A stretch of DNA of 64,000 nt from a virus (IMGVR_UViG_2537561978_000005), one strand, 5' to 3'. Positions 4,884-54,995 are shown, numbered from the stretch's first letter. Translations and numbers: made by a program. Notes: a model not told the origin generated them from the letters alone.

Positions 4884-5912
4884 ATGAGTGAATTAATTAT
4901 CTCTGGCAGCTCCGGTGGTTTTCTGCGCAACATTGGCAAAGAGTACCAGGAGGCCGCAGAAAACTTTATGCGGTTCATGAATGACCAGGGGGCTTATGCG
5001 CCGAATACTCTGCGCGACCTCCGGTTGGTGTTTCATTCATGGGCGCGCTGGTGTCACGCTCGCCAGCTTGCCTGGTTTCCGATCTCACCAGAAATGGCCC
5101 GCGAGTATTTTCTTCAGCTGCATGATGCCGATCTGGCTTCGACCACCATTGATAAGCACTACGCCATGCTGAATATGCTGCTTTCGCATTGTGGCCTTCC
5201 GCCACTTTCGGATGATAAAAGTGTTTCTCTGGCTATGCGGCGCATCCGGCGCGAAGCGGCAACTGAAAAAGGCGAACGAACAGGCCAGGCTATACCGCTT
5301 CGGTGGGACGATCTGAAACTGCTCGACGTCCTGTTGTCCAGGTCAGAACGGCTGGTGGACCTGCGCAACCGGGCTTTTCTCTTTGTTGCATACAATACGC
5401 TGATGCGTATGTCGGAAATCTCGCGTATTCGTGTAGGAGATCTGGATCAAACAGGTGACACTGTCACGCTACATATTTCACACACGAAGACAATAACGAC
5501 CGCCGCCGGGCTTGATAAGGTGCTTTCCCGTCGCACTACCGCTGTGCTGAATGACTGGCTGGATGTTTCCGGGCTTCGCGAACATCCTGACGCAGTGCTG
5601 TTCCCGCCGATACACCGTAGCAATAAGGCCAGGATCACGACAACGCCCCTTACTGCACCTGCAATGGAGAAAATATTCAGCGACGCCTGGGTGTTGCTGA
5701 ATAAAAGAGATGCTACGCCAAACAAAGGAAGATACCGGACGTGGACCGGGCATAGTGCACGCGTCGGGGCCGCTATTGATATGGCTGAAAAGCAGGTGTC
5801 TATGGTGGAGATCATGCAGGAAGGAACCTGGAAGAAACCGGAAACACTTATGCGGTATCTTCGCCGTGGCGGCGTGTCTGTGGGGGCTAATAGCCGCCTG
5901 ATGGATTCGTAA
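4884..5912 (+). CDS. cre: Cre-like tyrosine site-specific recombinase
   Basis: 342 aa; aligns along its length with recalled P1 Cre incl. NRAFLFVAYNTLMRMSEISRIRVGDL, HSARVGAA, catalytic Y in LMRYLRRG. Confidence 0.9.
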   Translation: MSELIISGSSGGFLRNIGKEYQEAAENFMRFMNDQGAYAPNTLRDLRLVFHSWARWCHARQLAWFPISPEMAREYFLQLHDADLASTTIDKHYAMLNMLLSHCGLPPLSDDKSVSLAMRRIRREAATEKGERTGQAIPLRWDDLKLLDVLLSRSERLVDLRNRAFLFVAYNTLMRMSEISRIRVGDLDQTGDTVTLHISHTKTITTAAGLDKVLSRRTTAVLNDWLDVSGLREHPDAVLFPPIHRSNKARITTTPLTAPAMEKIFSDAWVLLNKRDATPNKGRYRTWTGHSARVGAAIDMAEKQVSMVEIMQEGTWKKPETLMRYLRRGGVSVGANSRLMDS

Positions 5913-22710: not shown

Positions 22711-22759
22711 AATACTGACTGTTGCGCCCTGGCATTATCGTGGGGTATATTTCTACGGC

Positions 22760-22838
22760 ACCTTAGAAAAACGGGTGCCGGGATTGAGACCCCGGATAAT
22801 GCAAAAGGCGACACAGACGCCGAAAGCGTCTTTTTTTG
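22760..22838 (+). ncRNA. candidate small structured RNA (c4-like antisense regulator?)
   Basis: three consecutive hairpins ending in intrinsic terminator; contains GATTGAGACC repeated at 22971-22980 near icd-position RBS, and complementary GTCTCAA at 22940-22946. Confidence 0.3.
22815..22838 (+). terminator. intrinsic terminator AGACGC-CGAAA-GCGTCT + T7
   Basis: 6-bp GC-rich stem followed by TTTTTTT. Confidence 0.65.
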
Positions 22839-23022
22839 TGTCATGCCATCGCACAGCCATACGTAGCGTATAGCTCCAAGATCAATGGTAGTGCTGGCTG
22901 GGCTGCCGAAAGGCAGGCCGGTTCCCTTTTGCGCCGGTAGTCTCAACCCAGCCAGTGCTACCGCCATTGAGATTGAGACCTCACGCGGTAGCTCCTTAAA
23001 TTAGCAAAAGGAGGCTGCCAAT

Positions 23023-35802: not shown

Positions 35803-36708
35803 ATGAGATCAGTCGCTTTCAAAAATATCTTCATCTATCGTCTTTCACGCGAAGTTAGCTGGGATACTGCAGAAGTAAATGCAGCCCTTAGCAAGTTTGT
35901 GTTTACCCCATGCGGTTCTCAGGATATGGCTAAAGCTGGTTGGACCTCCGTTCTTGGTGACAACCTCACCCATGAATACCAGGGTTTTCTTCTGATACAG
36001 CATAAACGAGAGGAAAAAATCCTACCTTCTCAAGTGCTCAAAGAAGAGTTACAGAAAAAAATCCTGACACTTGAAGAAGAGCAAGACAGAAAGCTGAAGA
36101 AGACCGAAAAAGATTCGCTGAAGGATGAAGTGCTTCACTCTCTTCTTCCTCGTGCTTTCACGAGAAAATCACTCGCCAAAATCCTGATCGACCGCAGCAA
36201 CCATCTGGTATTCGTTGAGGCAAGCAGCGCCAAAAAGGCAGAGGACCAGCTGGCTTTATTGCGAAAATCGCTCGGCAGCCTGCCTGTCATTCCATTCACA
36301 CCACGCGAACCGCTGGAAATTACAATGACCGAGTGGTTTAAAAACGGCTTCCCTGCCGGATTTACAGCAGGTGAAGACGCCACATTAAAGGGTCTGCTCG
36401 ATAATGGTGGTGCCGTTCGCTGCAACAAAGTTGATCTACAGTCCGACGAGATTATGTCTCACATTGAGGCGGGGAAAGTAGCTACGACCGTTGCAATTAA
36501 CTGGATGGACCGCGCGTCGTTCAGAGTCAACGATGATATGAGTATCAAAGCCCTGACATTCTGTGATGATCTCTATGACCAGAACGACGATATCGACCGG
36601 GAGGATGTAGCACAACGATTTGATGCTGATTTCGTGCTCTTTACGGGCGAATTATCTGCACTGTTTAACGCGCTGGTGGAGGCCATTGGCGGTGAAGCAG
36701 AACGTTAA
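35803..36708 (+). CDS. hrdC: RdgC-like recombination-associated protein
   Basis: 301 aa; long colinear matches to recalled E. coli RdgC ([66 protein letters not shown]); hrdC-dmt order as in P1. Confidence 0.85.
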
Positions 36709-38980
36709 CCTTAGATATGGTTCAGTTTGCAGTGGAATTGAAGCAGCGAGCATTGCCTGGGAACCGTTGGGTATGCGTCCGGCGTGGTTTGCTGAAATCG
36801 AGCCTTTTCCATCTGCCGTTCTTGCGCACCGCTGGCCCCATGTCGCCAACCTTGGCGATATGACAAAACTTGCCAAAAAAGTCCTGGCTGGGGAAATCGA
36901 ATCCCCTGATGTGCTCGTCGGGGGAACACCTTGTCAGGCATTCAGTATCGCTGGATTACGTGGTGGGCTTGATGATGAGCGTGGCGCGCTAACTTTAAAG
37001 TATGTGGAGCTTGCAAATGCAATTGACGACAAACGGGCTGAGTCATTTCTCAAACCAGCCGTTATCGTCTGGGAAAATGTCCCAGGAGTCTTGTCATCGG
37101 CAGATAACGCCTTCGGATGTTTCCTTGCCGGATTGGCTGGAGAAGATGCGCCATTCGAACCAGGTGCTCGACCTGAATCACGAAAAAGTAACGCGTTCTG
37201 GCGGTGGGATGTCAAAACCAGTTGCCATGCTCCAAAGTGGCCGCAGTGTGGTTGTATTTATGGACCGCAGCGAAAAGTGGCCTGGAGAATCCTTGATGCC
37301 CAATACTTCGGAGTGGCACAACGACGCCGACGCGTGTTTGTTGTCGCAAGTGCTCGAACAGACCTCGATCCCGCAACGATACTTTTTGAGTTCGAAGGCG
37401 TGCGCCGGGATATTGCGCCGAGCCGAAAAAAGAAGGAAATCGCTTCCGCCATTATTGCAAATGGCGCTGCAATCAGTGGCGAAAGCCTAAATCCATGCCT
37501 ACACGCTGACATTCCACCCGGTATGAAATCGACGAAAGCCGTAAACGCTTTCAGGATGGCAGCATTTGGGGAATATATTGACGATGAAACCGCATCGACA
37601 GTAAAGGCAAGAGATTTTAAAGATGCCACTGACCTTACCGTTTTTAGCAGCACAGGAGCAGGTTTTTGGTCAGAAGGGCATGGTACATTGCGGGCACGTG
37701 AGCAAGAAAGCCATGAGCATCTTGTTACATTAGCTTTTCCTGAGCGTATGAGCGGTACACAACATGCTGCAACTAAGAATACTTCACCATCTCTAATGGC
37801 TCAAAATCCAACAGCCGTTTGCTATGAAGTAAGAAACGCAGAAGTAGCTGTCCGCCGTCTTACCCCTGTCGAATGTGAAAGGCTGCAAGGTTTTCCTGAT
37901 GGGCATACGTTGATCCCTACGGAAAAGCGTAAAACAATTTCCTCAGATGAACTGGCATACCTTCGCAATCACTATCCAGATTTAAGCGAAGAAGAAGCCG
38001 CGATGCTCGCTGCTGACGGGCCGCGTTACAAAGCGATTGGCAACAGCATGGCAGTTCCTGTTATGCAATGGATTGGGTGTCGCATTCTTGCGACTGTGGA
38101 AGCTAAACAGCCAAAAACAATAAATACCATTACCTACACAAGAAAACTCCGGACTCCGGATGAATATGAGCGTCCGATCTTCAAATGGGTAGGCGGTAAA
38201 TTCTCAGAGTTGCCTACAGTGCTTGAGCATCTACCACACGGCAAGCGGTTAATAGAACCGTTCGTTGGTGGCGGTTCTGTATTTACGAATGCAGGATTTC
38301 GCCACAACCTGCTTAATGATATTAACGGTGACCTGATTAACTTCTATCAGACATTGCAGCGAGAAGGACATTCGCTCGTCACGCTGTCATATAGTTTTTT
38401 CCAAAATTACAACAACGCTGACGCTTACCTCGAAGTGCGTGAGGCATTTAACAGAGGAAAGTATGACCAGCTACATCATGCTGCCGCCTTTTTGTACCTT
38501 AATCGGCACTGTTTTAATGGCGTAACGCGGTACAACCAAAATGGCGAGTTCAACGTGGGGTATGGCAAATACAAAGCGCCCTACTTCCCACATGCAGAGA
38601 TGGAGGCATTTTTGGCTGATGACGTACTCAAAAACACGTCCTTTGTATCAGGTGACTTTGCTGGCGTCATCGAGGCGGCTGGTGAAGGCGATGTGATTTT
38701 TTGCGATCCGCCGTATGAACCGCTGCCGGATACAGAAGGGTTTACCAGTTATTCAGGAAATAGCTTCCGTTTCGACGAACAGAAACGGCTGGTATCTCTA
38801 TTGGTGGAAGCCCACCAGCGCGGCGCTAAGGTAGTGATAACAAATAGTGGTGCGCCAAACATCCGTGAACTATATGAAGGAAACGGGTTTAAAGTACATC
38901 ATATGGCAGCCAGACGGTCGGTTTCCTGCAAGGCGTCAACACGTGTAGTTGCTAACGATATAATTGCAATAATGAAGTAA
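36692..38980 (+). CDS. dmt: bifunctional DNA methyltransferase: N-terminal C5-cytosine MTase fused to C-terminal Dam-like N6-adenine MTase
   Basis: [12 protein letters not shown] (PCQ) and ENVPGV motifs N-terminally; DPPY motif C-terminally; likely GTG start 36692 (GGAGG 9 nt upstream) rather than track start 36620. Confidence 0.85.
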
Positions 38981-38982
38981 AA

Positions 38983-39011
38983 AACGCCGCAGTAGCGGCG
39001 TTTACTTTTTT
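38983..39011. terminator. bidirectional intrinsic terminator AACGCCGC-AGTA-GCGGCGTT
   Basis: 8-bp stem between convergent dmt and glnS, T-runs on both sides. Confidence 0.6.
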
Positions 39012-39028
39012 ATGTGGCGAAATACCTA

Positions 39029-40690
39029 TTAACCTAACTTCGCCCAGGTATCACGCAGCCCAACGGTGCGGTTAAATACCGGTTTTTCCGCCGTAGAATG
39101 GCGGCTATCGAGGCAGAAGTAACCTTCACGCTCAAACTGGAATGCTTTACCCGCAACCGCATCTTTCAGCGACGGTTCAGCAAAGCCCTGTTTGATCACC
39201 AGCGATTCCGGGTTAATCACCGACAGGAAATCATCCGCAGCACCAGGGTTCGGCACGCTGAACAGACGGTCGTACAGACGGATTTCAACCGGCAGCGCAT
39301 GTGCCGCGCTCACCCAGTGAATAACACCTTTGACTTTACGACCATCTGCCGGATCTTTGCTTAAGGTGTCGGCGTCATAAGTACAGAAGATGGTGGTGAT
39401 ATTGCCTTCGGCATCTTTCTCCACGCGTTCTGCCTTAATGACGTAAGCATTACGCAGACGCACTTCTTTACCCAGCACCAGACGTTTGTACTGCTTGTTA
39501 GCTTCTTCGCGGAAATCGGCGCGATCGATCCAAATCTCACCGCTAAACGGCACCTGGCGGCTACCCATTTCCGGTTTGTTTGGATGGTTCGGCATGGTGA
39601 CCATTTCGCCTTCGCCCTGGTAGTTTTCGATAACCAGTTTCACCGGATCGATAACCGCCATTGCGCGCGGGGCATTTTCGTTGAGATCTTCACGGATGCA
39701 GGATTCCAGCGACGCCATCTCAATGGTGTTGTCCTGCTTGGTCACGCCGATGCGTTTGCAGAACTCACGAATAGAAGCCGCAGTGTAACCACGACGACGC
39801 AGACCGGAAATGGTCGGCATACGCGGGTCATCCCAGCCTTCAACGTGCTTGTCGGTTACCAGCTGGTTCAGCTTACGCTTGGACATCACGGTGTATTCCA
39901 GATTCAGGCGCGAGAATTCGTACTGGCGCGGATGAACAGGAATGGTGATGTTGTCCAGTACCCAGTCGTACAGACGACGGTTGTCCTGGAACTCCAGCGT
40001 GCACAGAGAGTGCGTAATGCCTTCCAGCGCATCGCTGATGCAGTGGGTGAAGTCGTACATCGGGTAGATGCACCACTTGTTGCCAGTCTGGTGGTGTTCA
40101 GCAAACTTAATACGGTACAGCACCGGATCGCGCATGACGATAAACGGCGACGCCATGTCGATTTTCGCACGCAGGCAGGCTTTACCTTCTTCAAAACCAC
40201 CAGTACGCATTTTCTCGAACAGCGCCAGGTTCTCTTCAACGCTGCGGGCGCGGTACGGGCTGTTTTTACCCGGCTGAGTCAGGGTGCCACGATATTCACG
40301 GATCTGTTCCGGCGTCAGTTCATCGACATACGCCAAACCTTTGTTGATTAGTTCAACAGCATAGGCATGGAGTTTGTCAAAATAATCGGAGGAGTAACGG
40401 ATGTTTCCAGACCAGTGAAAACCTAACCATTCAACGTCGTTTTTAATCGACTCGACGTACTCGATATCTTCTTTTACCGGGTTAGTGTCGTCGAAACGCA
40501 GGTTGCACTGGCCTTTATAGTCCTGGGCGATCCCGAAGTTCAGGCAGATAGATTTCGCATGACCAATATGCAGATAGCCATTCGGTTCCGGCGGAAAACG
40601 GGTATGTACTGTGGTGTGCTTACCACTGGCCAGATCTTCATCGATGATCTGACGAATAAAGTTAGTCGGGCGGGCTTCTGCCTCACTCAT
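39029..40690 (-). CDS. glnS: glutaminyl-tRNA synthetase (GlnRS), full length
   Basis: 553 aa essentially colinear with recalled E. coli GlnS incl. HIGH motif PNGYLHIGH and VMSKR motif; flanked by phage/plasmid genes, not chromosomal neighbours. Confidence 0.95.
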
Positions 40691-40839
40691 TGTGGATTCC
40701 TCAAAGCGTAAACAACGTATAACGGCGTATGATCTTATAAGCAGAATAGGCTGACAACCACTAGTTGGTTAGAAATTACTTTCTATAGTTGTTTCAATAA
40801 TGAGCTTTTTCATCAAGCCCACTTCTGCTCATAAGTAAA

Positions 40840-40920
40840 CCAGTGCTAAATGGTACACAATTGGCACCAAAAAGGATGTAAAGGTGCACCAAATCGGTGC
40901 TACATTGGTACACCTTTGGT
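40840..40920. repeat. cluster of short GGTACAC/GGTGCACC/GGCACC repeats (centromere- or operator-like)
   Basis: read directly between glnS and parG-like gene; similar motifs recur upstream of parA. Confidence 0.3.
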
Positions 40921-40958
40921 TCAATAATTTTTAAGTTCTAAAACCAACCTGAAAGACA

Positions 40959-41243
40959 TTATTTTGCTTCCTCAGACTCCGCTAACATGAGGATTGCATG
41001 CCGAATCAAGTTCAATTTGCTGCGGTTCAGTTTTTTGCTTAAATCATCGAGTACGCCGTACTCATATTCATTAAAGCTCACGCGTATGGATTTAAAGTCA
41101 CGCGGCGCATCTTTATCTGGAGTTTGAGTTGCAGCCTCAACGCCCGGCACCAAATCGGCTTTAATGGCGAACTCTTCAATGCGGCGCTCTAGTTCAGGGT
41201 CTTTTACAGCTTGTGCATTCACTGGCTCACGGCGCTTAATCAC
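40959..41243 (-). CDS. ribbon-helix-helix centromere-binding protein (ParG-like)
   Basis: 94 aa; C-terminal RSKLNLIRHAILML; directly downstream of and overlapping small ParA. Confidence 0.55.
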   Translation of the reverse strand: MIKRREPVNAQAVKDPELERRIEEFAIKADLVPGVEAATQTPDKDAPRDFKSIRVSFNEYEYGVLDDLSKKLNRSKLNLIRHAILMLAESEEAK

Positions 41244-41872
41244 GATAACAACTCCTTAATCAACATCTGAATCTCGCCCTTTGCTTTCCCGTTGTCCATT
41301 TCAACAACCCCCTTCCCTTCTGCCATGCAGTCACGATAAATCTTACGGTCACGGACGACGGTTTTCAGGAGTTCAAGTTGCGGGTATTCAGCAAGATATT
41401 CCCTTGCCTCATTGGCTTCGTTAACGACCGGGTTGGATGGTGCCATAGTCAGCATGGCATACGCCTTAAGTTTAGGGTTGAAATCCATCGCCTCAGCTAT
41501 AACCTCAACAAGGTGCGGTAGAGTATCCAGATCCGGCTGGGAAGGACGGAACGGCACCAGAAGCACATCTGCCGCTGTCATGCCTGTACGCATCTCACGA
41601 CTGTCGCGACCAGCAGTATCGACGACAACGTACTCGTAACGTTTATCCAGATCGAGCAGCGTCTCACGAATATTATCGAACTTCTGCACGCAGTGAATGA
41701 CAGGGGCAACCTCACCTGCATTACGGTCTGACGCCCATCGAGCTGCCGTTCCCTGCTTATCAGCATCAATCAAGACGACATCTTTGTTTTTTCGGGCCAG
41801 CTCGGCACAAATATTGACGCTGGTGGTTGACTTGCCACAGCCTCCCTTTTGACTTGCTACCAAGATAATCAT
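41240..41872 (-). CDS. parA: ParA-family partition ATPase (small type Ib, ParF-like)
   Basis: 210 aa; deviant Walker A SQKGGCGKST. Confidence 0.85.
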   Translation of the reverse strand: MIILVASQKGGCGKSTTSVNICAELARKNKDVVLIDADKQGTAARWASDRNAGEVAPVIHCVQKFDNIRETLLDLDKRYEYVVVDTAGRDSREMRTGMTAADVLLVPFRPSQPDLDTLPHLVEVIAEAMDFNPKLKAYAMLTMAPSNPVVNEANEAREYLAEYPQLELLKTVVRDRKIYRDCMAEGKGVVEMDNGKAKGEIQMLIKELLS

Positions 41873-41879
41873 GTCCGCA

Positions 41880-42110
41880 CCTCGGCTTTATTACGGCTCT
41901 ATTTTCACACTAAAACGGTACCGATTTAACACATCAACGGTACAGCAATAGCACCATTCTTAATGCCGGGAGTATAACATCAAATCAGATGGATGCTGGT
42001 ACACGTTTTGCGCCTGAATAGCACTAAATTAGTACCAAATATGTACCAGTACATTAACAACACCAATTCGGCGTTGTTTTGGTGGCACTTCAACACCATT
42101 TTGACACCAA
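41880..42110. repeat. GTAC/GCAC-rich repeat array upstream of parA (candidate centromere/promoter)
   Basis: cggtaccg, cggtacag, tggtacac, agtaccaa, tgtaccag, gtggcac read directly. Confidence 0.3.
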
Positions 42111-42114
42111 ATTT

Positions 42115-42142
42115 GAACAAAAAAGGCTGCAATTTGCAGCCT
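42115..42142 (-). terminator. intrinsic terminator AGGCTGCAA-TT-TGCAGCCT + T6 on minus strand
   Basis: immediately after parR-like stop. Confidence 0.6.
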
Positions 42143-42161
42143 TAAGATAGAGTATGAACCG

Positions 42162-42506
42162 TCAATCAGGTAGAGAGTCAGCCAGATTGCGCGCCGACGC
42201 GCTTTTGGCAACAACTTGCTCCTTCACTGGCTCAATGGAGGCAGGTCGCTCTTCAACCGCAGCAGGTAGTTCCAGGAAGGATGCCAGCATTTTTCGGATC
42301 AGCTCCGGGTTATTGTCTTCGGTCAGCAGGGAAGCCAGTAATCCTGGAAGCCTGCTATCGACTTCTCCCAGCGCAAGCCCTGCCAACAATGCAGTTCTTG
42401 CCATATCGCTATGTTTTTTTATCTTCTCGCTCGCCGCCTTTTCATTGGCATAAGCCTCTGGGCGAAGATAAATCATCACTTTCTTACGTTCCTGAGACAT
42501 GGACAT
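42162..42506 (-). CDS. parR: ParR-like centromere-binding adaptor
   Basis: 114-aa ORF immediately downstream of parM; assignment by position and size. Confidence 0.55.
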   Translation of the reverse strand: MSMSQERKKVMIYLRPEAYANEKAASEKIKKHSDMARTALLAGLALGEVDSRLPGLLASLLTEDNNPELIRKMLASFLELPAAVEERPASIEPVKEQVVAKSASARNLADSLPD

Positions 42507-42512
42507 ACCTCG

Positions 42513-43493
42513 TTAACCGATTGCTTTCAGGCCATGAACAAGAGCAAGTTGCGGGTCATCCGCCACGAAGAAACGGTCATCACGAATATTAACTTGCTCG
42601 CGAATTGCATCTGCCACCAGCGGTGCGCCACCACCGATCACCATGACATGCGTATATCCTTTAAAGTCGCCAATCACATCAAGAACGCGGGTACGCAGAC
42701 GGTCAATGCTTGCGGCAATGGCCTTTTTCACATCACCAATCGCTGATGGGTCATTGATATTGTCGTTCAGATAATCTTCATCGTGGCGGTTAATAATGAG
42801 CTGATCAACATTGTAATTGGACGTTTCGGTATTGGCTCTGGCAAGTGCTTGCCTTACTTCCCTGGTAACCAGAGAGACGCCAAGATTCGAATCGCCAAAA
42901 ACACGGGAAACTGCCGTCATTTGCCCGGCGACCATTGAAACATCAAGGGTAGTTCCACCCAAATCGACGATAAGAACAGAATGGGCAGGGTTCAGATTGT
43001 CGCACAGGCCAATTCCTGCCGGAATAGACTCCGGTCGTACCGTAACTTTCTTAATCGTGAACACATTGCCTTTATTCAACGTGACGGGGCGCATAAGACT
43101 GGATTTCTTGCGCTCGATGTTATCGAGATTGTATTGCGCGTCGTCGTCGTAAAACTCCGCCAGAGGCAGCGTGACCACAATTTCTACTTCCTGCGGCTCA
43201 ATGCCACTTGTCAGCAGGGCATGGTGAACAGCCAGGACGTTAAGCGGGCTGTATTGCCATTCCACGTTATTCGTCGGCAGAACATCTGGCGAGATCAAAT
43301 CATACGAATACTTTTCGTCGTCAATGACATAGTTAAACGGCTTGCCAGCACAAAATGTTGCTGACCATCCGCGCTTAAAGCTGTTAGGGCTGATGTGAGT
43401 GCGAGTTTCCCCGTCGTGCTCCCACAGCATTTTGATATTGGTTGAACCATCATCGATAAAAATGCGCATCTTCTTGCTCCACTTCTGAGACAC
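42513..43493 (-). CDS. parM: ParM/StbA actin-like partition ATPase
   Basis: 326 aa; MRIFIDDGSTNIK, HISPNSFKR, IVDLGGTTLDVS, YGDSNLGVSLVT, GYTHVMVIGGGA match recalled R1 ParM. Confidence 0.85.
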   Translation of the reverse strand: MSQKWSKKMRIFIDDGSTNIKMLWEHDGETRTHISPNSFKRGWSATFCAGKPFNYVIDDEKYSYDLISPDVLPTNNVEWQYSPLNVLAVHHALLTSGIEPQEVEIVVTLPLAEFYDDDAQYNLDNIERKKSSLMRPVTLNKGNVFTIKKVTVRPESIPAGIGLCDNLNPAHSVLIVDLGGTTLDVSMVAGQMTAVSRVFGDSNLGVSLVTREVRQALARANTETSNYNVDQLIINRHDEDYLNDNINDPSAIGDVKKAIAASIDRLRTRVLDVIGDFKGYTHVMVIGGGAPLVADAIREQVNIRDDRFFVADDPQLALVHGLKAIG

Positions 43494-43700
43494 ATTTGAG
43501 AATCAAAATGCAATTTTAAAAGAGAAGCACCCAAAAATCCACACCAAAAGAGATAATAAAGAGTGATTATTGAGTTCATTTTGAGAATATCTTAATCACC
43601 CAATGAATGATGGTCTGACAGTGAGATTTATTTGAGGATGAATTGAGAATACAAAAATATTCCGAAATTTTACTCTCAGTTTGAATGACGAAATAACAAA
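43494..43700. repeat. parC-like centromere/promoter: iterated TTGAGAAT-type repeats
   Basis: tttgagaatc, ttgagttc, ttttgagaatatc, tttgaggatgaattgagaatac, tttgaatgac upstream of parM. Confidence 0.4.
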
Positions 43701-43735
43701 GTGATGACAATAGGAGGATAACCAGGAGGTGAAGA

Positions 43736-44020
43736 ATGAGCGCAATAGCCACCAGCGACACCCTTTGTTCTGGTCACGGAGGATTTCCGCCGCGACTGGT
43801 AGCTGAAACTGTTCCCTGGTTCACCGTTAACGGTAAGCCAATTGTTGTAGATGGTGCCATGTTTCCCAGTCACACTGACGGTAACAGTGCACATCCAGGG
43901 GCAGCTGTATCGACGCGAGTATGGTTTTCGATAGGTGGAAAGGGAGTTGTCTGTGTAGGCGATCCGCTTTCTTGTGGTTCTGTTATCGCCAACGGCGAGG
44001 ATATTTTTCAGGTTGCATAA
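43736..44020 (+). CDS. PAAR-like spike-tip protein
   Basis: 94 aa; TVNGKPIVVDGA, HPGAA, SIGGKGVVCVGDPLSCGSVIANG. Confidence 0.55.
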   Translation: MSAIATSDTLCSGHGGFPPRLVAETVPWFTVNGKPIVVDGAMFPSHTDGNSAHPGAAVSTRVWFSIGGKGVVCVGDPLSCGSVIANGEDIFQVA

Positions 44021-53640: not shown

Positions 53641-53863
53641 ATGTGTGCTGTAGGGAAAGGTTTACGTTAAATGTGTGCTGCCGGGAAACCCCATTGCTCA
53701 AGATGTGTTGTAGAGGGAATGGTAATGGCAACATGTGTGCTGGAGGGGAATTTCGCATGTAAAGAGCGTCATTTATCCCTCCAGCACACATCTGAAATAA
53801 GCAATCCTCTGAAATTCCCTCCACCACACATCCAGACATGAAACTATCCCTTCAGCACACATT
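53641..53863. repeat. incA-like iteron array: >=7 copies of ~19-bp ATGTGTGCTGGAGGGAAA-type repeat, two orientations
   Basis: ATGTGTGCTGTAGGGAAA, ATGTGTGCTGCCGGGAAA, ATGTGTTGTAGAGGGAA, ATGTGTGCTGGAGGGGAA, then CCCTCCAGCACACATCT, CCCTCCACCACACATCC, CCCTTCAGCACACATTT. Confidence 0.75.
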
Positions 53864-54723
53864 TAATCTGTTGGTTTAAGTTTCGGATTCCGAGAGTGAA
53901 CGATAATGAAGTTTTCACGACCTTGCTTTTCAATGGTGCAATCGAGATAACCTATTGTTTTTAACTGGTCTATAGCTTTTTTTATCGTTCTGTTTTGCTC
54001 ACTTACCGATGACATCAAGGCTAATCTTTCACGTATTCTGGCAAATGAAATAGGTATTGGACGTGCCGGGAGGCTTTCTATAAAGGTATATATGGCCTGG
54101 GCTGCTTCTTTTTTAGGTAAAGCGCGAAGTGCGTGTTGCTGTAGAAGCACCCGATAGTCTAGCTGGAAGATTTCCCATAACTTGGAATCAGCCTCCAGTT
54201 CAACGACATCTGTTTCAAAGTCAAAATATCCCGTTTTAAGCAGGCCAGTATTGTAGCTTCCACGAGCACTTTTCCCTCTTTTGAATGAGATGCCTTTGTT
54301 GCGTAACCGACCTAAAGAATCGTGGATCGTGTTTCTTAATTTCCCATCAAGTCGCTTAGATGGAAATCCGCACGCCTTTGCAAATTCTTGAAAAGAAAGG
54401 CGAATTGTATTCGATGATAAGCCATACTTGCTAAATGAGTAGATTACCCCAATCCAGACTTTGAAATCAGTATCCATGTCCAAGCGAGGGCCAGTGATCT
54501 TGATGTTGTCGTAGCCTTCTGCTTGAGCTATTTCCAATTTGGAAAAAACAGATGATGCATCTATCTCGTTGTTTTCACCCTGTTTTTTAGTTGGTTTAGG
54601 GACGAAAACACCAAGCCGCATAAGTGCGACAGGTTGAACAGTATTGTTCGAATTAACTGTTAATTCTTTAGCCTTGCTTTCAATGTCAGCATAAAGAATA
54701 TCAGAGATAAATGACTTATCCAT
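53863..54723 (-). CDS. repA: plasmid replication initiator RepA (P1 RepA type)
   Basis: colinear with recalled P1 RepA (SFISDILYADIESKAKELTVNSNNTVQPVALMRLGVFVPKP ... DYRVLLQ ... ALRALPKKEAAQAIYTFIES); ATG 54723, alternative TTG 54726. Confidence 0.9.
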   Translation of the reverse strand: MDKSFISDILYADIESKAKELTVNSNNTVQPVALMRLGVFVPKPTKKQGENNEIDASSVFSKLEIAQAEGYDNIKITGPRLDMDTDFKVWIGVIYSFSKYGLSSNTIRLSFQEFAKACGFPSKRLDGKLRNTIHDSLGRLRNKGISFKRGKSARGSYNTGLLKTGYFDFETDVVELEADSKLWEIFQLDYRVLLQQHALRALPKKEAAQAIYTFIESLPARPIPISFARIRERLALMSSVSEQNRTIKKAIDQLKTIGYLDCTIEKQGRENFIIVHSRNPKLKPTD

Positions 54724-54726
54724 CAA

Positions 54727-54995
54727 TAAGTTACCGTCATGTTGTGAATAAAGTTTACGACAGTGGATATCCGGCTTTTTTTCCCGTCAGCACACATCCT
54801 ACATCCCGTCAGCACACATGTAAAACCCTCCAGCACACATATTTTTCCCGTCAGCACACATCGTTCTCCCTCCAGCACACATCTGAATAGTGGTTAAAGC
54901 CTTATGTGGCGCGGCCTGAAGAGCTACGGGATCTATTTGGTACTATATGGATCTAATCAGGATCTATATATTGGATCTATCCTGTGGATAAAAAA
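54727..54995. other. oriR-like origin: five 19-bp iterons, GATC cluster, DnaA box
   Basis: CCCGTCAGCACACAT / CCCTCCAGCACACAT x5 (54786-54890); four GATC in 54930-54980; TGTGGATAA at 54984-54992. Confidence 0.7.

Follow-up and report, generated by a model that had tools for sequence, protein, structure and literature searches.

Why should a temperate phage-plasmid family of Escherichia coli, Salmonella and Shigella keep a copy of an essential host aminoacyl-tRNA synthetase gene? This modest question is raised by positions 38983-43735 of a stretch of viral DNA of 64,000 nucleotides (IMGVR_UViG_2537561978_000005; the whole stretch is called the window), where five genes, all on the minus strand, lie between the methyltransferase gene dmt and upfC. 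They encode a glutaminyl-tRNA synthetase (GlnRS, gene glnS), a small protein of 94 amino acids, a ParA ATPase, a ParR/StbB adaptor and a ParM/StbA ATPase, and the open reading frame (ORF) list puts them where an earlier note made from the sequence alone had placed them. We think it fairly probable that this is a maintenance and cargo island of a D6-like phage-plasmid, in which two partition (par) cassettes accompany a once-captured, working and expressed extra copy of GlnRS. Phage D6 and the D6-like plasmid prophages were reportedly described by Gilcrease and Casjens in 2018. D6-like genomes were noted to carry glnS in a 2019 paper that includes the Salmonella ST213 plasmid pYU39_89, and ideas of fitness and of plasmid maintenance (addiction) were already raised there (PMC6799933). 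The gene content was thus described in 2018-2019 and our finding is a rediscovery of what is already known; the detail added here concerns an apparently single capture together with a promoter-like site, a near-wild-type enzyme, exchange between alleles, relatives that lack glnS, and a retained host copy. Taken together they speak against a resistance variant, and they offer natural controls for experiments.

The glnS gene, its signals and the boundaries of the DNA it shares with the chromosome are as follows.

39029-40690, minus strand: glnS, intact, 553 amino acids (ORF list, Pfam, NCBIfam and structure alignment)
40729-40757, minus strand: sigma-70 promoter-like site TTGTCA-17-GATCAT, which in E. 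coli K-12 lies 39 nt upstream of the chromosomal glnS start
40777-39033, minus strand: captured cassette homologous to the chromosome, starting 86 bp before the ATG and ending inside codon 553
38982-39003: bidirectional intrinsic terminator that serves both glnS and dmt, in the gap between their stop codons (39029 and 38980)

Across the cassette 1668 of 1745 positions are identical in K-12 (about 96%). The homology begins just after the nagE terminator, takes in the chromosomal glnS promoter-like site (the same scan was applied to K-12 and to the window) and ends within codon 553, so that the protein finishes with KLG instead of KVGE and its stop codon comes from non-homologous DNA. The earlier note was right to suspect a chromosomal capture. 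Chromosomal glnS in 5,425 matching E. coli genomes is 95.5-96.4% identical to the window gene, with none closer, and the full 1749-nt glnS query is matched by 103 plasmids at 95-99%, those of Salmonella and Shigella included. Since the full match is found throughout the plasmids, and since the upstream junction is common to the window, D6 and pTB423, the sequences indicate one ancestral capture from an Escherichia-like chromosome. Within the terminator at 38982-39003, the 9-bp stem AAACGCCGC/GCGGCGTTT is identical to that of the native chromosomal glnS terminator and the T-run is also the same, the native one being located about 200 bp further downstream, past repetitive extragenic palindromic (REP) elements. 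It may be that this terminator was captured as well and that the REP-containing spacer was deleted later. In relatives without glnS, a different hairpin follows dmt.

No donor of glnS was found in a scan for a plasmid-specific motif that covered one genome per species in 100,044 species; the only matches were Pseudoalteromonas and one Enterobacteriaceae genome, whose glnS is 87% identical. Among deposited phage genomes, D6 alone has this glnS. GlnRS genes of about 50-57% identity come from two megaphages, a pair of Acinetobacter phage records and a number of metagenomic contigs labelled 'Bacteriophage sp.'; the homologues in the uncultured megaphages LR745206.1 and LR756502.1 (630-640 kb) are about 50-54% identical. 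An Enterobacter ludwigii plasmid (NZ_CP116349.1) carries a full-length glnS of 86% nucleotide identity encoding 555 amino acids (extracted segment 6053-7720), with dinQ, an SNF2-related gene and two genes for site-specific integrases as neighbours; this essential gene was apparently acquired there on a separate occasion.

A gene that is 96% identical to chromosomal glnS could in principle come from an assembly artefact in which the chromosomal glnS locus was joined to prophage DNA, and the earlier note had named such a misassembly as what would undo its account. We regard this as practically out of the question. The whole glnS segment recurs in the D6 genome and in 103 plasmids, with more than 100 independent circular records among the latter. 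The upstream junction is the one seen in D6 and pTB423, the homology with the chromosome breaks off 86 bp before the gene and within codon 553, and neither nagE nor chiP flanks the gene. The circular plasmid NZ_CP148392.1 is colinear with the whole window (94-99.7% identity over 51.3 of the 64 kb), and phage D6 is colinear with it as well; on account of this colinearity the idea of a chromosomal misassembly fails and the episomal location supposed by the earlier note holds.

The relatives also identify the element. Over the island, identity to phage D6 is 93%, and the gene order is the same (dmt, glnS, small ORF, ParA-like, StbB, StbA, upfC); in the GenBank annotation of D6, orf62 is a glutaminyl-tRNA synthetase, orf60 a possible ParA, and orf59 and orf58 are StbB and StbA. 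At least 80% of the island is covered by 98 plasmid records, mostly circular and 90-97 kb in size, from E. coli, Salmonella and Shigella. NZ_CP148392.1 carries genes for tail, capsid, portal, terminase, a lytic replication protein and a Cre-like (tyrosine-type) recombinase, together with phd-doc and higBA, and Rfam detects a P1-type C4 antisense RNA, known from the immunity region of phages P1 and P7, at window positions 22881-22968. The synteny with D6 and plasmid prophages, the high identity and the P1-type phage and immunity genes place the window in the D6-like group. It is a D6-like, P1-related phage-plasmid, neither chromosome nor misassembly. Rfam also finds an isrK Hfq-binding small RNA just upstream of the C4 antisense RNA, both within 22758-22968. 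The two genes that border the island are these.

36620-38980, plus strand: dmt (ORF list)
43736-44020, plus strand: upfC, a PAAR-domain gene (ORF list)

The window has a single fused, P1-like dmt, one ORF for a cytosine-plus-adenine methyltransferase that is 84% identical to P1 Dmt, whereas in D6 two separate genes are annotated at this position.

What kind of enzyme does the captured gene encode? The earlier note described an intact GlnRS of 553 residues with HIGH and VMSKR motifs, and Pfam, NCBIfam and structure alignments all agree. The motifs LHIGHAKS (HIGH) and VMSKR (KMSKS-type) align with, and are identical to, those of the E. coli GlnRS structure 1o0b, and the alignment with E. coli GlnRS crystal-structure sequences runs from end to end. 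The catalytic and two anticodon-binding domains (PF00749, PF03950, PF20974) are all above the Pfam cut-off, and the score against NCBIfam TIGR00440 glnS is 1065.7 bits (cut-off 425.8). Compared with K-12 there are seven substitutions (V97I, Q106K, I112V, D148A, A163T, L276Q and V552L), and Glu554 is lost. Most plasmid alleles have V97I, Q106K, I112V, V552L and the loss of Glu554; A163T is found as a chromosomal polymorphism too, and Q106K probably arose on the plasmid lineage. Two of the solved chains are truncated, 1euq (548 residues) and 1nyl (aligned to query residues 9-547), and both V552L and the loss of Glu554 lie past their ends. Identity of the plasmid GlnRS to the host enzyme is about 98.7-99.3%, and glnS would thus appear to encode an essentially wild-type GlnRS that charges tRNA-Gln. 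No tRNA was found in the 64-kb window, which means that the plasmid GlnRS has no tRNA-Gln partner there, and Rfam returned no RNA gene within the island.

These substitutions bear on the idea of protection, in which the extra copy would shield the cell from an attack on GlnRS or on the charging of tRNA-Gln by a toxin, an inhibitor or a host defence, either as an insensitive variant or through dosage. Plasmid-borne aminoacyl-tRNA synthetase genes that act as resistance determinants are a classic precedent and count in its favour, as does the fact that V97I, Q106K and I112V are common to most plasmid alleles. However, synthetase paralogues that confer resistance or immunity are typically far more divergent from the housekeeping enzyme than the identity given above, and the plasmid GlnRS has neither the marked divergence nor the altered pocket expected of that type. 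Also I97 and V112 are both present in an Enterobacter GlnRS, and we know of no toxin aimed at GlnRS, nor did the literature consulted yield one. With seven substitutions and a lost last residue, this is not a divergent resistance-type enzyme; the suggestion in the earlier note of resistance through an altered enzyme finds no support, and protection in general seems to us quite improbable.

A second question is whether the plasmid copy has been kept by selection. All ten plasmid glnS alleles extracted are intact at 553 amino acids, and the Salmonella-borne copies Sal_pMFDS and Sal_pYU07 are also intact. The ratio of nonsynonymous to synonymous divergence (dN/dS) is 0.021 between plasmid alleles (dS 0.116), 0.019 between chromosomal alleles (dS 0.067) and 0.029 between plasmid and chromosome (dS 0.173). 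The word relic, used in the earlier note, does not suit a gene that is intact in ten of ten alleles with a dN/dS of about 0.02. In the plasmid pSa1423-160k of Salmonella sp. (NZ_MK356558.1, 169 kb), glnS is only 90% identical and has many indels, with an ORF broken after 56 amino acids (extracted segment 6082-7729); it is a pseudogene or the product of a low-quality assembly, and the record is sparsely annotated.

The alleles are mosaics. All of them share a plasmid-specific signature at about nt 230-420, which in most differs by 9-14% from every E. coli allele, with three amino-acid changes only. Outside this patch, blocks of their sequence agree with particular types of chromosomal allele, and the pairwise homoplasy index (PHI) test gives p<0.0005. 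The D6 allele differs from the chromosomal consensus by 5.1% before nt 586 and by 0.9% after it, over the last 1.07 kb (p=0.001), and pTB423 differs from its nearest chromosomal alleles in every bin (84 differences in 1656 nt, about 5%, rising toward the 3' end). Repeated gene conversion between plasmid glnS and the resident chromosomal glnS would be the simplest account of these mosaics. Because the alleles are mosaic, dating by synonymous divergence from host glnS, the check proposed in the earlier note, would mislead. Gene conversion also means that the low dN/dS may in part reflect selection on the donor or chromosomal template and not on the plasmid copy.

Taken further, this argument would make glnS a neutral hitch-hiker, of no benefit to its carrier and kept intact by gene conversion from the selected chromosomal copy. 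The strong mosaicism fits such a picture, as do the last 1.07 kb of the D6 allele and the existence of some relatives without glnS. It accounts poorly for the patch at nt 230-420, which has not been overwritten and yet holds so few amino-acid changes, and for pTB423, which stands about 5% apart from the nearest chromosomal alleles in every bin and is still intact. Sal_pMFDS and Sal_pYU07 are intact as well, although the Salmonella gene is presumably a poorer template for conversion. We therefore find the hitch-hiker explanation doubtful.

Does the host come to depend on the plasmid enzyme? Of 5426 complete E. coli genomes, 5424 have the chromosomal glnS-chiP locus, counted by its presence, and essentially all carriers are among them; the same collection holds 81 plasmid-borne glnS copies. 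Carriers thus keep their own glnS locus beside the plasmid copy, with no sign of its loss. The element, for its part, can be found without glnS. A query representing the dmt-to-partition junction with glnS deleted was matched by 13 plasmid records, and the two that were inspected, CP042620.1 and the E. marmotae plasmid NZ_CP099353.1, are both D6-like. In both of them dmt, a terminator, a motif cluster and the gene for the 94-residue protein directly adjoin one another (extracted segments 5085-5232 and 5030-5152, respectively), and the order dmt, partner, ParA, ParR, ParM is kept, so these are natural 'empty sites' of glnS. Given such records, the claim that all D6-like genomes carry glnS (PMC6799933) is not strictly true.

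An addiction or dependency, which the earlier note had suggested next to a dosage device and in which the host relies on the plasmid GlnRS (for instance because its chromosomal copy is down-regulated) and loss of the plasmid becomes costly, has a precedent in plasmid pBT1 of Salmonella Typhimurium D23580, where chromosomal cysS is dispensable and the plasmid copy is the required one, although the pBT1 CysRS is less active and less stable (PMC6785131). The idea has already been raised for D6-like glnS (PMC6799933), and the gene sits inside a maintenance island and is widely conserved. Against this stand the chromosomal locus, kept almost without exception in a collection with 81 plasmid-borne copies, a plasmid enzyme that is nearly identical to that of the host, unlike the pBT1 CysRS, and the D6-like relatives that do without glnS; moreover, the element already has phd-doc and higBA. 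All in all we judge addiction to be unlikely. We give similarly little credence to a more speculative proposal, that the near-wild-type glnS is a working device for host dependency or protection, either by taking over the supply in the manner of pBT1 cysS or by buffering the charging of Gln-tRNA against a defence or a competitor toxin during lysogeny or lytic growth, and that, separately, the 1.7 kb of host-shared DNA forms a recombination bridge between prophage and chromosome.

The other part of the island concerns maintenance in the strict sense. The cassette nearest to upfC is of the ParM/ParR type.

42513-43469, minus strand: ParM/StbA, actin-like ATPase (longer in the ORF list, with a GTG at 43493)
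42162-42506, minus strand: ParR/StbB adaptor, directly downstream of parM (Pfam Plasmid_stab_B)
42143-42123, minus strand: intrinsic terminator after parR
43484-43650, minus strand: candidate parC-like region, with TCTCA-core repeats on either side of a promoter-like site at 43595-43566

Both proteins of a type II ParMRC system, the ParM ATPase and the ParR adaptor, were found, in line with the ParM/ParR pair of the earlier note. ParM scores 230 bits with Pfam StbA_N and 187 bits with ParM_N, and it matches the R1 ParM structures over the full length (E=5e-110), sharing about one residue in two. ParR reaches 43 bits with PF10784 (cut-off 25), and its match to the structure of pB171 ParR (2jd3) has E=1e-6. 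Upstream of parM there are eight TCTCA-core motifs, several spaced at 11 bp or multiples of it, a layout that recalls R1 parC and makes the region a candidate parC.

The second cassette lies between glnS and parR, and its protein partner is much harder to classify.

41240-41872, minus strand: ParA, a ParF-type Walker ATPase (type Ib) of 210 amino acids, with the deviant Walker A motif KGGCGKS at residues 9-15
40959-41243, minus strand: 94-residue ParA partner, putative ribbon-helix-helix (RHH) centromere-binding protein (ORF list, weak model)
41877-42115: candidate operator and centromere site upstream of parA, with TGGYRY/GGTAC-type motifs
40851-40930: candidate second centromere-like site, a GGTAC/GGTGC/GCACC cluster downstream of the gene for the 94-residue protein

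ParA is above the Pfam cut-offs for AAA_31, CbiA and MipZ, its best Protein Data Bank (PDB) match is TP228 ParF (E=7e-19), and it is a small ParA of about 200 amino acids without an N-terminal DNA-binding domain. The 94-residue protein has no match in Pfam (E up to 10), in NCBIfam or, by sequence, in the PDB. Homologues, at 70-99% identity, turn up in D6-like elements only, and the alignment is for that reason too shallow to improve the structural model; within the family the N-terminal half or tail varies, and hardly any change is seen in the C-terminal 47 residues. The AlphaFold (AF2) model is weak (pLDDT 62) and shows an extended segment followed by helices at 59-72 and 76-93. Foldseek returns mostly RHH proteins for it, with ParG first and PutA, TacA, ORF56, CdbA, CopG, AmrZ and Arc also in the list, all at E>0.8, and a ribbon-helix-helix protein is likely on the basis of this model. 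Of the ParA/RHH pair proposed in the earlier note, the ParA is borne out and the RHH partner plausible.

In no other 250-nt stretch of the window are TGGYRY motifs as dense as upstream of parA, and GGTAC occurs eight times across both flanks of the ParA cassette, where 0.45 would be expected. The cluster at 40851-40930 is conserved in D6 and pTB423, and related RCACCA-type motifs stand at the same spot in the relatives without glnS. No terminator was found after the gene for the 94-residue protein in the terminator scan of the island, so that, of the repeats and terminators of its own with which the earlier note had credited each cassette, the motif clusters exist and the terminator of the ParA cassette does not. 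For parM, parA, parR and the gene for the 94-residue protein dN/dS is 0.03-0.26 (in pairs that differ enough for an estimate), and both cassettes look functional from their sequences. ParM and ParR are 99% identical to those of D6. ParA and its partner (window 40959-41872) show 86% and 77% amino-acid identity to the D6 alleles, with saturated synonymous sites, and this pattern looks like an allelic replacement of one cassette.

Why would the element need these cassettes? The replicon of the window gives a hint.

53641-54887, minus strand: P1-type minimal replicon, repA with incA-like and incC-like iterons and no adjoining parAB
53863-54726, minus strand: repA, 84% amino-acid identity to P1 RepA
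53641-53867: incA-like iterons, P1-type, on one flank of repA
54779-54887: incC-like iterons, P1-type, on the other flank of repA

The repA gene is placed between tub and pmgB. P1 ParA and P1 ParB have no tblastn match in the 64-kb window, so the observation of the earlier note that a P1-type repA occurs here without adjoining parAB is correct. D6 has an unrelated initiator at the repA position, and because a P1-type RepA stands here in its stead with no P1 ParA or ParB match, it appears that a minimal P1 replicon was swapped in without parABS. In P1 itself parAB-parS directly adjoins repA. It follows that the phrase of the earlier note, two partition systems in place of P1 parAB, is apt for function but not for position. 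The full P1-type replicon region is shared by five PLSDB records only, and the boundaries of the replicon module are at about 53655 and 55022. NZ_CP035876.1 is 100% identical over the replicon region and only 94% over the par island, a contrast which implies that the element is a recombinant of modules.

We can now return to the reading we favour, that of a maintenance and cargo island. The P1-type replicon would have arrived without parABS, and the two partition cassettes would segregate the low-copy prophage by filling the role of that locus, with ParR and the putative RHH protein predicted to bind the repeat arrays beside their genes. In the lysogen glnS is probably transcribed from the captured sigma-70 promoter-like site and would then provide a second source of GlnRS. 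Any benefit would be that of a cargo ('moron') gene rather than of a resistance variant, and the host-shared DNA would make plasmid glnS a regular partner of chromosomal glnS in gene conversion. The layout of the genes, their homologies, the limits of the capture, the intact reading frames, the mosaic alleles and the presence of both gene copies are shown by the sequences, and transcription, enzyme activity, the choice of bound motifs and any selective advantage are inferred. Several points weigh against this reading. The expression and activity of glnS are predictions from sequence; its low dN/dS may in part come from selection in the donor before capture or from recopying of the selected chromosomal gene; and the D6-like relatives without glnS show that the element can dispense with it. 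On the side of partition, ParA scores 165 bits against the NCBIfam ParA_partition equivalog, below the 180-bit cut-off, the structural evidence for the RHH call is weak, and the centromere role of the motifs is proposed from their enrichment.

How does the island compare with systems already known? For glnS the nearest case is pBT1 cysS, where a large low-copy plasmid likewise bears a second copy of an essential aminoacyl-tRNA synthetase gene and the chromosomal copy is kept. The difference lies in the enzyme, since the pBT1 CysRS is the less active and less stable protein and also the required copy, whereas the plasmid GlnRS is near-identical to that of the host. The ParM/ParR cassette resembles ParMRC of R1 in the full-length ParM match, in the position of ParR next to it and in repeats phased at about 11 bp that flank the promoter-like site upstream of parM; it differs in the TCTCA core of the repeat, in a less regular array and in a ParR closer to the pB171 type. 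The second cassette may be compared with ParF/ParG/parH of TP228, with which it shares a small ParA and a partner that seems to combine a disordered, variable N-terminal tail with a conserved C-terminal domain resembling a strand-helix-helix. Here, however, no similarity in sequence between the partner and ParG could be detected, the partner belongs to a family restricted to D6-like elements, and the motif clusters are found on both sides of the operon.

The arrangement as a whole recalls plasmid pB171, for which Ebersbach and Gerdes in 2001 reportedly described par1 (ParM/ParR) and par2 (ParA/ParB) with parC1 and parC2. In the window, too, a type II and a type Ib system adjoin on one replicon, and its ParR matches the pB171 structure 2jd3. 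The candidate clusters upstream of parA and downstream of the partner gene resemble parC1 and parC2 of par2 in their layout. The pB171 cassettes are divergent and share parC1, whereas those of the window are in tandem on one strand with a terminator between them. That pB171 likewise combines systems of type II and type Ib in its double par locus is stated in PMC4270457.

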